Origin: Eledone cirrhosa
Lineage: Eukaryota
Assembly: GCA_964016885.1 (NCBI GenBank)
Contig: OZ024740.1
Location: forward strand, 367,350,001 to 367,414,000
Direction of reading: 5' to 3'
Length of the DNA: 64,000 bases
A program made the translations under genes and the position numbers. Below the pieces are notes generated by a model. The model ran no database searches and had not been told where the DNA came from. It was given only the letters and a program-made list of their open reading frames with translations. Of the stretch, positions 6,415 to 61,416 are shown one piece after another; the first letter of the stretch is position 1; each line of letters opens with the position of its first letter.

Positions 6415-6907
6415 TTGTTATGCTTTGGGAGGGTCATATTGCCAATAAGAAACACACGCACCAGTTGCTTTCACTCCAATTTATTATAAAGTAAATTTAT
6501 AAATTTAAGAATTTATAAATTTTCTGTTGGTTGGTTGGTTCCATAACCGGGCGGTTGTTCATATATTGTCAAAGTTCTTTCGTCACACATTATGTGACCT
6601 CTTCAGTGACTGGCGATTCTTTTCTTTGTTTTGTGCCTCTCCTTTGTTCTGTCCTACGCCATCTTGTTTTTGTGTGTTGTGTGACGAAAGAACTTTGACA
6701 ATATATGAACAACCGTCCGGTTATGGAACCAGCCAACCGGGAATTTTTAAATTCTTAAATTTATAAATTTAATTTATATAAATTGGAGTGAAAGAAACTG
6801 GTGTGTGTGTTTCTTATTGGCAACATGACCCTCCCAAAGCATAACAATATCGGTTTCAACCAACGTTTTCAGATAAAGAATCTTGCTAAACAAATTCAGA
6901 AACGAAA
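6415..6907. mobile_element. Palindromic HHR-bearing PLE terminal (pLTR-like) insertion, family B
   Basis: Inverted arms at about 6415-6590 and 6680-6850, with an extra tail to 6907. Flanked by (TA)n. Homologous to 33915-34096 and 40488-41098. Confidence 0.75.
6568..6610 (-). ncRNA. Minimal type I hammerhead ribozyme
   Basis: GTCA-CTGAAGA-G-GTCAC(ataatgt)GTGAC-GAAA-GAAC-TT-TGAC. Confidence 0.8.
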
Positions 6908-7044
6908 TATATATATATTTGCCTAATCTCTGGAGTATGGGTAATATCATTTACATAACGGAAATTAGTATTTACTAATTGGTTGGATATATGTACTTCT
7001 CACCTTATATATATATATATATATATATATATATATATATATAT

Positions 7045-7102
7045 AGGAACCAGTAAGACCCCGACAGCTGAGCTCAAGCCGTTTCGACGGCTAATTCTGG
7101 AC
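7045..7102 (-). mobile_element. Short terminal fragment of family C (3' half of the HHR) in (TA)n
   Basis: Identical to 29667-29725. Confidence 0.75.
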
Positions 7103-7976
7103 TATATATATATATAAATGAAATAACAGGAGGCTGGACTGGTGTAAATTCTTGAAAGGTTTATTATACTATGATCATTTCAATGACCGGGTTCCATATG
7201 AATCCGGTGATATCTATATATCATGATATATTGGAATATAACAAAGGAATGTGTAAAAAGCCATGGGTCCGAAAAATCAGCTGACCGATTAGCTTCACAG
7301 CCAGCCGCCCTCAAAATGTTGGGAACTGAAAAACTACCAATGAATATCTGGTGAGGGGGCGAAGGCTTACAATGCGCTACCACCACTCCGTCAAAGAAGA
7401 AGGGGAAGAAAGAAAGAAAGGGAGAAAAAAGTGTAGTGTAAGTGTCAAACTACATTCATGTTAGAAAATGCCGCGAAAAAATGCCGCGAAAATATGCTAC
7501 TCAAAGAATCTATAATGGGTGTCTGTATGGTCTAATGTGTGAACCGAAGATTGGAACGTTATCCACAATATTACACCAGGATTGACCATACGGAATGGCC
7601 AGTTCTATCCAGTGGTGAACCAACAAACCTAAAGATATATATATATATATATGTACACACACACACACACACACACACACACACACACACACATATATAT
7701 ATATATATATATATATATATATATATATATATATATATACATTTAGAAACACACAGATACATGCGGACACACACATATATACAAGAATGCATCCGCACCC
7801 AACTGTGAGTTAAGGGTGCCAACTTCACCGATGTTGCTCAATGAATGACTGGGACAGACCAATTCAGTTTGAACCAGACTGAACCAGTATCAGAGTTAAA
7901 AATACATTATGAAGAGAGAAGAAACATTTAGATATAATTAGTAATAAAATGTATCATACCTAAACTGTTCCTAAAT

Positions 7977-8064
7977 TCCTCGACTACGTAGTTTCGTGGC
8001 ATAAACAAAAACAATATATCAAAGATATAGAGTCCTTGCGAGGTCTGCCGACTTATCAAGAGGA
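7977..8064 (-). ncRNA. Type I hammerhead with variant core UUGAUAA (U3-A8)
   Basis: TCCTC-TTGATAA-GTCGGCA...TGCCAC-GAAAC-TACGTA-GTC-GAGGA. Helix III is palindromic. Confidence 0.75.
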
Positions 8065-8368
8065 TACCTCATTTTACTAGTCTCAAGAACGCGTCTACAC
8101 GACGTGAGAAAGAATCCCAAAAGGCGGAGGGGGAGATAGTCACGCGATATAACGGTCGAGAAACAGAGCTAAGCCTCTTATAACCACGAAAAAAATACCA
8201 CGGAGGCGGAGGGGGTATTCATATCGAGGCCGTAGAAGAGGTAGTGAAGAAGGCGAGAAGTATGAGTAATGGAAGCTTTCCAGTTGTCCCCATATATATA
8301 TATATATATATATACATATATGAAATATATGAAATATAAGAATCAAAGAACTGTTCAAAACATTTTTA

Positions 8369-8415
8369 TGCTTACAGCTGTTTCCTCCAAACTGAGGTTT
8401 GGATTATTCGGAGCA
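8369..8415 (-). ncRNA. HHR-like motif with altered core (CCGAAUA)
   Basis: Reverse complement of 9126-9172. Confidence 0.5.
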
Positions 8416-57962: not shown

Positions 57963-58608
57963 CTCATGCAGCATATAAGAATGATTTAAGAAATCGAAGG
58001 TATGCTCATGTAAGGTAGCATTCTGCCAATGTCAATATAAACGCACCAGCATCGTGCTGCAATAGCATTCTGTATATATATCCAATTGGATTATTCTCTT
58101 TAAAGTTGGTTTATACAGATAATAATAATATAAAAAATATTTTATTGTTATACAAACATATTAACTAGCCAGGATATAATTAATTATGCGTCTATACTGA
58201 TTTTATAATTCCTAATTCCTAAAAAGTAGCGTCTCTAAATTTTCTTGACAAATTATTTCAGCAACAAATAGATTACATATATGTAGAAGTTATTTTGTAT
58301 TAACATATTAAATAACATCATTTAATATAACTAGATATCAAGTTAACGTTCATATAACAACCTATACGAAAGATCATTTTAAGTGTGTATAAATAATCGC
58401 AATAATTGCAAAGCATTAAGATAATATTAACTTAAATTTGCGATATGAATTATTCATTATTTCTTCGGATTAGACACAGCAATATATTGAGAATGTAATG
58501 ATCTGGCGTTGAAGCATTTCTCAAGAGAAAAGATTGATATTAGCATTTTATGGGAAACGAAATCTAATGTTGGATGGGTTCAATGAAAGATTAATATATT
58601 ATATGTTA

Positions 58609-58693
58609 ATAAATTAAGGTCATGGCTAGGAAAGATAGTATATTAATATACTATATTAATATACTATCTTTCCTAGCCATGACCTTAATTTAT
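58609..58693. repeat. Perfect palindrome with 42-bp arms
   Basis: ATAAATTAAGGTCATGGCTAGGAAAGATAGTATATTAATATA-C-reverse complement. Confidence 0.9.
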
Positions 58694-59423
58694 ATTCACC
58701 AAAAAACTCCATACAACACAACTCAACATTTAATTTTTACATTCCTTTTAAACTTCACTATACCATATACATTCAACTATCAATTTGACAATCCCTTTCT
58801 TCCTAATAGATTTTTTATGGCAATTCTATTTTTAACACCATTCAACCATTCCTTTCAAAGGGTCATGACCTCAACTAAAGTGAATTATTTTTCATCTTAA
58901 CATCATATGAAAAAAACAATCTGACTGGTTAGTTCTTAGCTACCTCCAAATTAAGTCATAGAACTAAACATAATACTAATTTACTGAATAAAATTATTAT
59001 TGCTTTTGACAACAGCTGGTGATATGCATGTAAGTAAATATTCTCTTTATCTGTTAGTTTGTAACTACCTTTACATAGATCGATAATATTTCTGGGTGAT
59101 TACTCTTTATCAGTGCAGTATACCTCTTACCTGCCAACTCTCAGAGCTAGTGAAAATACATGATATTTTCTATAATATACAGTAACTGATCGGCCTGATT
59201 TGCAAAGCCGGCCATTAATCGTTTGTATATATGTAACTGACAGGCCTATCTGCTGATATGCAGATCTGGCAGATCAGGGAGTCTGCTAATATGCAGATCT
59301 GACTAATCAGGCAGTCTGCTAGTATGCAAATCATGCCGATCAGTCACTGTATATTTTAGAAAAAATATATTTTCACCATTTTCTGGCGTAGGCATTACAA
59401 TACAACGGAAGGAAACATAATAG

Positions 59424-59467
59424 TACCACTGATGATGTCACAGATGTGTGACGAAAGAACTTTGATA
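59424..59467 (+). ncRNA. Minimal hammerhead (family-B related)
   Basis: ACCA-CTGATGA-T-GTCAC(agatgt)GTGAC-GAAA-GAAC-TT-TGAT. A family-B-like end ATGACCCTTCCCAAA..AACAATATA follows. Confidence 0.75.
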
Positions 59468-59761
59468 GACTATGTATATATATTTGTATCTGTATTTTTA
59501 GCCGTTGGTTAATCAAAGATAAAAATTGATTACCAGATGAATGGAGATATAAAAGATACAGAAGCGAAAACCATTCCAAACCAATAAATGAGTGTGTTTT
59601 ATTATTATTTCTGGTAATATTATAACAATATGACCCTTCCCAAATGTAACAATATATATATATATATATATATATATATATATATATATATATATATATA
59701 TATATATATATATATATATATATATATATATTGTTATATATATATATATATATTGTTATAT

Positions 59762-61416
59762 AGTAAGGTGCAACATTGATTGTGTAAAATGGTCCAATAA
59801 CTTTATGTTAGCAATATTAAGTTCTCCAATTCCATTCGAGGGAACAGCTAGAGGATGTAAAACGGAGTATAAGTATCAAAATGAAAATCCGAAGGCAAGG
59901 TAAAATTCCAATCATTTAATCACGACACATGTTTCAATAAGAGATAGATCGATTGTGAAGCCATGATCGATTATCACTGATCTCATCAGGTGAAAATGAA
60001 TTGTCTTCAAATTCTTGATATGAGGGAGAAAAAAACGATGTTTCCTCACATAATTCATTCCCTCATATGGAGACACACCAGTCAGTCAGAGACAAGGCGA
60101 CTGCTATTAGCTTTAGTTGAGGTCATAAAAGTTTTACGGATTGAACAACGATACTGACAGACCTTTAATGGGCCTACACACATCCTCTGGTTTTCACTAT
60201 CCTGTATTTTCTTACTTCACCTTCTATGCTGAATAACACACCTCCACCACTCAAACAACTATCTAAAAAGCTCATTGGCCCATGCGGCGGGAGATCGCAC
60301 TTGCGAACTCATTTACCCTATACCCAACCCTACATAGAGCCCTTTGCCGGCCCACATTGCAGTTGCTTGCACGCACGGATTTGGTGATTCTGATTCTCAA
60401 CGGGACAGCGGTACACCAGGAGTTCGACATGAGCTGATTGCTTACTCTTCACATGGATGTGTATATACTCGGATATCCCCCTCCCCCCATTTTTTGGACG
60501 ATTCGGATATGTATATACCATTTACCATAACACACTTGACAATATGGATGTTACAATTGGATCTATACACGTACAGCAGAACACTGAACTGAACTTACTT
60601 GCGCGCACGCGCCGGTGTGTGTGTGTATGTATGTGTAGCGTTGGTTAACCCAATATTTCCGATTTACATCGTCGAATTGAGATTTGACCGACATAGCTTC
60701 TGTTGCTTTGCGAACTAACTTTTCGGTGATTGCTGTGTTGGTACATTCTTGTATGTGCTTTTTCTCGGATATCGCTTCGGTGTGTGTTAAAGTGTGTGTG
60801 TACCCACCCACGCTAATTCTGCGGGTTTAATACTGTGTTGAGGTGTGTATATATATGTATTTATTTTTATTTTTAATTTTAATTTTAATTTTTATTTTTA
60901 TTTTTATTTTTATTTTTATTTTTATTTTTATTTTTATTTTTATTTTTATTTTTATTTTTATTTTTATTTTTATTTTTATTTTTATTTTTATTTTTATTTT
61001 TATTTTTATTTTTATTTTTATTTTTATTTTTATTTTTATTTTTATTTGACCTCGAGCCGATGTATGCGGCAGTGGAGTGTGTGTGTACCCACTCACTTCT
61101 AACTGTGACTGACTGTATCCCTACGGATTTGTTTGATGTCCAGCGTCTTTTGCAGCGATAGAAGTCTGAAAAGTTTTATGACCTCAACTAAAGCTAATAG
61201 CAGTCGCCTTGTCTCTGACTGACTGGTGTGTCTCCATATGAGGGAATGAATTATGTGAGGAAACATCGTTTTTTTTCTCCCTCATATCAAGAATTTGAAG
61301 ACAATTCATTTTCACCTGATAATCGATCATGGCTTCACAATCGATCTATCCCTTATTAAACATGTATCGTGATTAAATGATTGGAATTTTACCTTGCCTT
61401 CGGATTTTCATTTTGA
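59762..61416. mobile_element. Inverted-repeat PLE remnant
   Basis: Arms at about 59875-60134 and 61171-61416, with a left tail at 59762-59874. The minus-strand spacer reads IVKCVMVNGIYISESSKK/ISEY (GIY-YIG-like, weak) and contains (TTTTTA)n at 60860-61047. Confidence 0.65.
59920..59993 (-). ncRNA. Type I hammerhead
   Basis: TCAC-CTGATGA-GATCAGTGATAATCGAT...ATCGATCTATCTCTTATT-GAAAC-ATGT-GTC-GTGA. Confidence 0.7.

Follow-up and report, generated by a model that had tools for sequence, protein, structure and literature searches.

How does one stretch of DNA come to hold about ten insertions, each a head-to-head inverted duplication seated in (TA)n and each with an extra tail at only one end? 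The question is raised by a 64,000-nt stretch (hereafter the window) of the 3.0-Gb assembly of Eledone cirrhosa, in which an initial annotation had listed 11 such intervals. Self-BLAST of the window recovered an inverted pair in all 11, with (TA)n on the flanks and extra sequence on one side only; taken in order along the window, these extras measure 60, 165, 42, 98, 79, 113, 60, 111, 88, 68, and 114 nt. The arms are 88 to 100% identical, the exception being the old insertion at 47520-47929, where identity is 76%. The three junction pairs quoted in the annotation are present in the sequence; two of its long ends, placed at 44030 and 59762, lie at about 44026 and 59753. We group the insertions into families A (6415 and 40488), B (29588 and the old 47520), C (34912 and 41121), D (8325), E (9922), F (13300), G (44026), and H (59753). 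By their motifs and architecture, they are classified here as Penelope-like elements (PLEs), as the annotation had supposed: five Hydra-clade families (B, C, D, G, and H), one Neptune-like family (A), one without an assigned open reading frame (ORF) (F), and one tRNA-headed nonautonomous unit (E). We propose, with a probability of roughly 0.63, that the palindromes form when a protein dimer sits on two hairpins of one RNA leader, both strands of (TA)n are nicked, one complementary DNA (cDNA) is made per hairpin, and the cDNA ends are joined by reciprocal template jumping. The insertions and their parts are as follows.

6415..6907: insertion of family A (Neptune-like PLE); the short arm begins at 6415, the long arm extends to 6907, and the 60-nt tail is 6848-6907; hammerhead-like motif 6572-6606 (-)
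8325..9380: family D (Hydra-type) insertion; paired arms 8326-8515 and 9026-9215, 165-nt tail 9216-9380; 9-nt duplication at the left end
9220..9251 (+): bulged hairpin of family D, CUC-stem-UU-GAG, directly 3' of the D short start site
9922..10267: family E insertion; nonautonomous 271-bp unit with a tRNA-like head; 42-nt tail 9922-9963; arms 9964-10267, joining within the tRNA-like part
10322..12570 (-): one-armed family B-related copy, absent from the initial annotation; begins at the long site after (TA)n; ORF piece 11626-12570
13300..13737: family F insertion; arms 13300-13639, 98-nt tail 13640-13737; hammerhead motifs 13357-13405 (-) and 13534-13582 (+); arms join at the initiator-like TCACT stop
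29588..31260: family B (Hydra-type) insertion; long arm is unit 1-1230, short arm is unit 79-529, tail 29588-29666
29638..29659 (-): bulged hairpin of family B, 3' of the B short start site
34912..40370: family C (Hydra-type) insertion; tail 34912-35024; arms to 37996 and from 37997; ORF pieces 36052-37997 (-) and 37997-39355 (+); hammerhead motifs 35135-35178 (-) and 40217-40260 (+)
34980..35018 (-): bulged hairpin of family C, 3' of the C short start site
40488..41098: family A insertion; arms 40488-41038, 60-nt tail 41039-41098; hammerhead motifs 40643-40677 (-) and 40849-40883 (+)
41121..47420: family C insertion; tail 41121-41231, hairpin 41188-41226 (-); hammerhead motifs 41342-41385 (-) and 47267-47310 (+); right arm interrupted by the family G insertion, within an internal (TA)n of C
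44026..46685: family G (Hydra-type) insertion nested in C; 92-nt tail 44026-44117, hairpin 44091-44110 (-); canonical minimal hammerhead motifs 44171-44208 (-) and 46595-46632 (+)
47520..47929: old B-related insertion; arms 76% alike, 68-nt tail 47862-47929
59753..61416: family H (Hydra-type) insertion; tail 59753-59875; paired arms 59876-60135 and 61169-61416; hammerhead motif 59924-59989 (-)

Further one-armed copies, likewise unlisted before, lie at 7043-7107 and 14599-14726; hence, the palindrome is frequent but not universal. A diverged one-armed piece resembling family A (59372-59652) ends at the short site and shares a TA run with the H insertion, the two standing back to back.

The same ends recur across the genome. 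Exact patterns joining (TA)n to the short end matched 13527 times for A, 4705 for B, 1337 for C, 719 for D, 43 for E, 154 for F, 107 for G, and 429 for H, against 0 matches for the reversed-pattern controls. Among the arms that abut TA in the loci collected, two sharp end positions stand out per family, taking up 113 and 80 of 201 arms in B, 22 and 33 of 61 in C, 21 and 24 of 46 in D, and 11 and 26 of 39 in G. The earlier suggestion that short and long ends fall at fixed rather than random positions therefore holds genome-wide, with the qualification that family H has two long sites, 11 nt apart, and that the long end of E is scattered over 4 nt.

One possibility is that the palindromes are fold-back artefacts of assembly or library preparation at (TA)n, and such mirrors do exist in the assembly: at one G locus, L223, which we excluded from the counts, the mirror includes the flanks. 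Raw reads bear directly on this. For family B, we used raw Illumina reads from restriction site-associated DNA sequencing (RAD-seq), in two runs filed under the same species label as the organism in which family B matched best (77% of sampled words). Subject to RAD bias, TA loose ends appear in them at unit positions 1 and 80, in 7398 and 2925 reads of the first run and 8050 and 2600 of the second, and strand-switch joints occur at B positions 138-143. Read depth over unit positions 1-140 lies two orders above that of the element body, the reads again being RAD-biased, and the same holds in one contig set. For family E, three read runs contain strand-switch joints with a 4-nt overlap, at the same position as in the assembly. 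The palindromes of B and E are hence not fold-back assembly artefacts, at the level of the family. Furthermore, the arms diverge with age (76 to 100% identity), the ends are asymmetric and fixed, one palindrome is nested within one arm of another, and the same mini-palindromes occur in contigs of other organisms. An artefactual origin is thus largely refuted, and we regard it as almost certainly wrong.

The two ends are combined in a near-strict manner. For each family, the first 24 or 30 short-end matches were sampled without sight of the far end, and most of those left unresolved were followed out to 7 kb (one F and one G locus in this sample are the window's own). A long partner was found for 21/30 short ends in A, 28/30 in B, 22/30 in C, 20/24 in D, 20/24 in E (six of these scored by a 21- to 59-nt tail without a recognised end), 14/24 in F, 16/24 in G, and 14/24 in H. 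Over the eight families, the 210 loci comprise 155 long-short insertions, a single short-short one (L174), and 54 that are one-armed, interrupted, or unresolved. Starting instead from the B long end, 30 loci scored by eye gave 16 with an inverted short arm, one long-long pair (L059), and 13 with no clear partner. A script applied to all 65 two-armed B insertions classed 63 as long-short, one as long-long, and one as long-other; 23 of these 65 had been found by chance beside other anchors, and all 23 are long-short, an outcome expected once in about eight million under a free 50:50 choice. Among 12 E copies chosen by their body, seven are long-short, none is like-like, and five are unresolved. 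Pairs of like ends, which would have spoken against the pairing of long with short ends in the initial annotation, are accordingly not frequent. Four candidate short-short pairs, chosen from lists of positions, were set aside on inspection: L220 contains two long-short insertions that are separate, L221 and L222 contain one-armed copies that are likewise separate, and L223 is the mirror already mentioned.

Where in the RNA do these ends lie? The annotation had placed priming near the RNA 3' end, which is incorrect as regards the RNA, although the sites do make up the 3' ends of the insertions. Where B, C, D, E, G, and H occur as natural tandem copies (L009, L196/L207, L311, L316, L325, and L313), the long end reads on into the next unit; the element's RNA sequence thus continues past it. 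In B, both sites fall between a stop zone at unit positions 133-143 and the ATG, which is 92 nt past the long site. In C, D, G, and H, the ORF begins shortly past the long site and the hammerhead core lies 5' of the short site. Both start sites are therefore internal, in the leader between the hammerhead and the ORF start.

This position bears on the idea that the long end is simply the RNA 3' end, made by termination or a ribozyme cut, and the short end a second, internal priming in the style of long interspersed elements (LINEs). Both ends do point outward at the element's 3' side, and L1 twin priming offers a precedent: both nicked strands prime on one RNA, one at the terminal poly(A) and one at a variable internal site, yielding an inversion whose arms do not overlap. 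Neither a terminal poly(A) with a variable internal primer nor regularly non-overlapping arms is found here; instead, there are two fixed internal sites, and the arms usually overlap, a difference from L1 that the annotation had correctly drawn. The read-through of the long site in six families, its own hairpin beyond it, and the position of the predicted hammerhead cut 5' of both sites likewise make a 3'-terminal long end highly improbable.

A predicted hairpin is a feature of both sites. In RNA sense, a bulged hairpin of the form CUC-[stem-loop]-UN-GAG lies 6 to 10 nt 3' of all ten main sites in B, C, D, G, and H, and in 5/8 F tails, against a chance level of 1 to 4.5% of positions; it was found neither at the second long site of H nor in families A and E. 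Because the pattern was derived from B, C, D, G, and H, it was tested on held-out elements at 36 to 43% protein identity, in contigs of other organisms, with seven leaders (the metagenome loci L344-L348 being too partial, L361 lacking a leader, and L373 being too rearranged for inclusion). These leaders contain 13 strict matches, compared to a shuffle mean of 0.54 and a maximum of 4 in 1000 shuffles. Clear pairs of hairpins 61 to 68 nt apart occur in five of them (L341, L363, L364, L367, and L372); L362 has one strict hairpin and one CAC/GUG variant, and L368 has variants only, with CAC/GUG replacing CUC/GAG. Insertion ends in the held-out contigs fall 5 to 8 nt before a hairpin in L342/L343, L362, L365, L367, and L370, and L365 contains two TA-flanked long-short minis. 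In minimum free energy folds of whole leaders, the hairpin reappears for some of the families but not all, and no argument is built on these folds. The animal-type PLE insertions L361-L373 sit in contigs filed as bacterial genomes, which are probably host DNA within bacterial assemblies.

The sites also resemble their target. Alternating A/T (AUA/UAU) matches (TA)n over 3 to 6 nt at 9/10 main Hydra-type sites and also at the short sites of A and F; the background probability of 3 or more nt of such microhomology is 0.07 to 0.25. In H, the first long site has 1 nt and the second 6 nt, and the E long site has 1 to 2 nt of target-matching A/T.

Whether the two arms share a template can be judged from their variants. 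In ten young B insertions, the arms differ at 13 of 12248 positions within insertions, as against 0.43% between them; the four polymorphic sites shared among B copies never differ between arms in any of the ten, and in five of the ten both arms carry private variants in common. Five subfamily sites scored in 49 B insertions gave identical arms in 45. Both arms thus carry one source haplotype. A single RNA molecule probably templated both, although haplotypes would also be shared if each cell expressed one source or if the arms underwent gene conversion. Arm lengths point the same way: where the B long arm exceeds 173 nt, the short arm mostly passes position 143 too, compared to 3/30 unselected short arms, even though the arms end independently and either may be the longer by kilobases.

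An alternative is that two protein-RNA particles, or two sequential rounds, make the arms, with the pairing set by order, the first nick using the long site and the second the short one. The excess of long-only copies would fit a first round that often ends alone, the shared haplotype would follow if one source is expressed per cell, and the same hairpins would serve. The concordant arm lengths within insertions are easier to obtain with one template, the private variants common to both arms in five of ten young insertions are likewise against two templates, and a second RNA gives no simple reason for avoiding the long site. We accordingly consider two particles or rounds rather unlikely.

The joints between the arms bear on a further explanation, published for the Penelope elements of Adineta vaga, in which the inverted arm arises when a single cDNA, or else an antisense RNA, turns back and serves as its own template (Arkhipova et al. 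2013, PMC3846280). Many minis are near-perfect hairpins with arms 95 to 100% alike, and identical haplotypes would be expected from fold-back. However, in four of the 65 B insertions (L030, which pairs unit 1-45 with 79-136, L060, L079, and L177), the arms have no overlap at all, which excludes copying of one arm from the other there unless those gaps are later deletions. Moreover, the advantage in length can amount to kilobases and may lie with either arm, each arm is read in the same cDNA sense from a (TA)n of its own, and in A, C, D, F, G, and H there are long arms that do not extend as far as the short site. Fold-back self-priming is hence very improbable for these families.

Returning to two cDNAs joined at their ends, the 65 B joints comprise 31 with 0 to 1 nt of overlap, 22 with at least 2 nt, and 12 with 1 to 17 extra nt. 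One E joint (L232) contains a 42-nt piece repeated about 14 times, the kind of trace expected from successive template jumps. Many arms also stop at preferred places. Outside the set selected by long ends, 67/106 B arms end at 133-143, yielding 200-bp palindromes; 11/37 F arms cluster at TCACT and 14/78 E arms at the tRNA stem base. In B and F, the stop positions match YY-A-N-T, which resembles an initiator. TCACT has been noted in the pseudo-long terminal repeats (pLTRs) of Penelope elements (PMC3846280), and the Penelope promoter was located in the pLTR (PMC2377424). The stops may hence represent run-off at the RNA 5' end. A further cluster, of long arms with ends at B94-104 and thus close to the hammerhead-like cut site, was left out of account, as short arms stopping there would be shorter than the 25-nt detection limit.

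Two B loci deserve separate mention. At L018 and L019 (G000:C1:437198050-437214410), an arm has 4.6 units, which carry A, G, A, and G in turn at unit position 2787; copying twice round a two-unit or circular template would look like this. At L048 (370-1526), a long arm proceeds as far as the stop at 138, resumes after a jump at unit position 2712, and continues until it meets the stop again, a direct trace of template jumping.

Taking these findings together, we propose the following course of events, which agrees with the annotation's proposal that both target strands are primed at two fixed sites and the two cDNAs joined head to head. A predicted dimer of the element's protein would bind the two copies of the bulged hairpin in the leader of one transcript and nick both strands of (TA)n; the dimer is taken, by analogy only, from the model for PAc, a Poseidon PLE. 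Each nicked 3'-OH would pair with the 3 to 6 nt of AUA/UAU at one site and prime reverse transcription, the hairpin acting as a protein-binding or positioning signal, such that tail length would equal hairpin spacing. Both reverse transcriptases (RTs) would then travel toward the RNA 5' end, each cDNA starting beside its own hairpin, and at run-off or a stall each would jump to the 3' end of the other cDNA, whereby the arms are joined and each gains a second strand. Priming on the 5'-most leader would give 200-bp mini-palindromes stopping at the initiator-like site, and priming on a downstream leader of a tandem read-through RNA would give kilobase arms and new tandems. The Neptune-like A and the tRNA-headed E follow the same pairing rule without this exact hairpin and may use other signals.

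Several observations weigh against this proposal. One-armed copies are common, 13/30 long-end B loci being without a clear inverted partner. Long-end patterns of B exceed short ones, 19257 versus 4705 (the patterns differ in breadth, and the short one is subfamily-specific), and the RAD-biased loose ends in both read runs lean in the same direction. Exceptions to the pairing exist in L174 (short-short), L059 (long-long), L020 and L052 (third sites), and L369, which is probably long-long. Families A and E lack the hairpin; the five families that gave its ten of ten are also those from which it was defined; and its strict form, with the loop limit used, is missing in L368 and in most H short tails. 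The strong stop is weak in C and D, with little clustering, and the shared haplotype has the two other possible sources given above. Finally, PAc was seen to use both start sites on either strand, with no target homology, and no pairing was hence shown there (PMC11167929).

The natural unit of family B is 3531 bp, often tandem, with an intact ORF of 717 aa (L009). This ORF has the RT motifs QFDIESYY and YRDD, followed toward the C terminus by VIYQC..AYIG. C, D, G, and H carry ORF pieces like that of B, a single ORF with RT as well as an endonuclease of GIY-YIG type at the C terminus. The GIY-YIG reading derives from the position of the motif together with PF01541, which we take to be the GIY-YIG endonuclease family, in the top homologue of the B protein. 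That protein has 2049 relatives at E 1e-30 among 8000 scored, 0 matches among PDB sequences, and none in the viral contigs searched; a Pfam scan of three window ORF pieces gave no RT or endonuclease match at E 0.01. The RW[KR] and DKT motifs read RWR/DKT in B, D, and G and RWK/DKT in H, and in C DKT was seen in the DNA of L134/L139 only. The CxCx5C linker, CxxC, and CxH read CNCPDRSIC..CNLC..CKH in B, CNCTYPDNC..CKLC..CRH in C, CNCRANRTC..CNLC..CQH in D, and CNCRRASSC..CNLC..CPH in G; for H, the part covered gives the linker CNCRSTATC. None of the five has a CCHH finger, and all insert in (TA)n as tandem and inverted copies with a tail. We hence place them in the Hydra clade by this motif set, so that the annotation's description of the families as unrelated fails for these five, though it stands for A and E; no ORF was found for F.

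A motif scan places a putative hammerhead core in C, G, H, and, as a CCGAAGA variant, D, with only half a core in B. Rfam gave 132 matches on the whole window at E 1, none reaching its family cut-off and no hammerhead among them, and the miRNA-like matches reflect the palindromes and (TA)n. The hammerhead-like fold of B (L009, unit 90-141) keeps GAAA and the GUC site around an 8-nt noncanonical core; B is nonetheless very abundant and young. The family A ORF (L218) has the linker CIDKKCITC (CX4CxxC), two Cys between the VVY and YIG motifs, two His, DKS, and a hammerhead core; because of this linker and the CCHH-type endonuclease, we classify A as a Neptune-like PLE, of the Neptune/Nematis type. 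Its RT fingers contain a long insertion, unusual alongside a C-terminal endonuclease. Asn/Thr-rich low-complexity inserts interrupt the PLE ORFs of A (L218:3088-4408 region), D, G, and H and have also been described for rotifer Penelope elements (PMC3846280).

Family E is of a different kind, a noncoding 271-bp unit found in arrays. Its tRNA-like head is called by ARAGORN as nine genes in 4/9 loci and matches Rfam RF00005 at up to 45.7 bits, 9/10 matches reaching the cut-off of 29; such a tRNA-related head with A and B boxes is that of a tRNA-derived short interspersed element (SINE). E differs from SINEs in having PLE-type long/short inverted arms in place of a LINE-type 3' tail and single-arm insertion, and from non-LTR retrozymes, which carry a type I hammerhead per tandem unit, in that the motif scan found no hammerhead and Rfam on the E array gave tRNA only. 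A T5 run lies 10 nt after the tRNA-like part, and transcription of the whole unit by RNA polymerase III would need read-through. A DNA search for a partner PLE returned E copies only among the 12 loci examined. The locus L313:1-7100 is an array of about 25 E units (271 to 272 bp), with heads called as Ser(GGA) or as Tyr without a long variable arm, and is likely to be a source of multimeric E RNA. E appears to borrow PLE machinery.

Published systems provide several parallels. The Hydra clade (Craig et al. 2021, PMC8557442) has the same C-terminal endonuclease and RW[KR], DKT, CxCx5C, CxxC, and CxH motifs; it also has hammerheads, to which the putative cores in C, D, G, and H would correspond; it targets (TA)n, forms tandem and inverted copies with a tail often at one end only, and has hosts that include molluscs. 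The layout of inverted copies plus tail and the (TA)n targeting were hence published before. The present Hydra-type families differ in tails of 78 to 166 nt versus 30 to 40 nt, and in a B unit of 3.5 kb versus under 3 kb. That paper ascribes the tail to endonuclease resolution and names as an open question how PLEs make inverted copies and tails; its text passages and a word search of its supplement gave neither pairing counts nor a start-site hairpin.

Two internal RT start sites are likewise already published, for PAc in vitro (Frangieh et al. 2024, PMC11167929). PAc nicks both strands and extends them, starting at two internal sites between which the tail lies, and its model is that of a dimer. 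A hammerhead lies upstream, as hammerhead-like motifs do here. For PAc, initiation was reported to be unchanged by 3' extension of the RNA, and the steps after initiation were left unvalidated. PAc starts without target homology, within the ORF and at an AC-rich stem-loop, whereas here the sites precede the ATG, match the (TA)n primer over 3 to 6 nt of AUA/UAU, have each their own copy of a hairpin, and are split between the strands. Adineta vaga Penelope elements (PMC3846280) resemble ours in their head-to-head inverted pLTRs, an optional 31-bp tail on one of them, the initiator-like TCACT, and palindromes at the joint; their explanation by self-priming on an antisense template is contradicted for the present families by the non-overlapping arms. 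E shares with retrozymes and tRNA-derived SINEs (PMC7229834; bioRxiv 10.64898/2026.07.22.740005; PMC8969392) the short tandem noncoding unit and the tRNA-like head, but not the hammerheads that define the former or the LINE-type 3' tail. No PLE pairing rule, start-site hairpin, or PLE-mobilised tRNA element was found in the literature searched (subscription papers, Repbase notes, and supplementary figures lying outside its scope); what we take to be new, on that footing, is the near-strict pairing, the doubled hairpin, the single haplotype in both arms, the non-overlapping arms as a case against fold-back, and the PLE-style tRNA-headed unit.

Elsewhere in the window, a 186- to 194-bp repeat with a tRNA-like start, dispersed and tandem and often beside (TA)n (18509-19935, 28021-28254, 33708-34326, 49581-49766, and 61416-61563), is presumably an ordinary SINE. 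A near-perfect 85-bp hairpin at 58609-58693 has neither (TA)n flanks nor a tail. A direct repeat of about 915 bp (96%) at 264-2077 contains a 37-bp minisatellite, and the same minisatellite element interrupts the C copy L135.

A wider claim, on which we are evenly divided, is that Hydra-clade PLEs integrate by symmetric double priming, in which a dimer uses one RNA and two hairpins and each cDNA templates the second strand of the other. The palindrome would then be the normal product, with tail length set by hairpin spacing, and the same machinery would mobilise a tRNA-headed, SINE-like passenger without a LINE partner. The tens of thousands of natural products in this one genome provide a pairing rule and a candidate cis signal that is open to mutational test, and the structures described here exclude the published self-priming model for these families. 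If the hairpins are sufficient, insertion could be directed to microsatellites by a short RNA handle, PLE ends could be annotated by rule, and the 200-bp minis, which resemble miniature inverted-repeat transposable elements or microRNA hairpins, would be assigned instead to PLE run-off. Should a PLE indeed move a tRNA-headed unit, the definition of a SINE would become wider.

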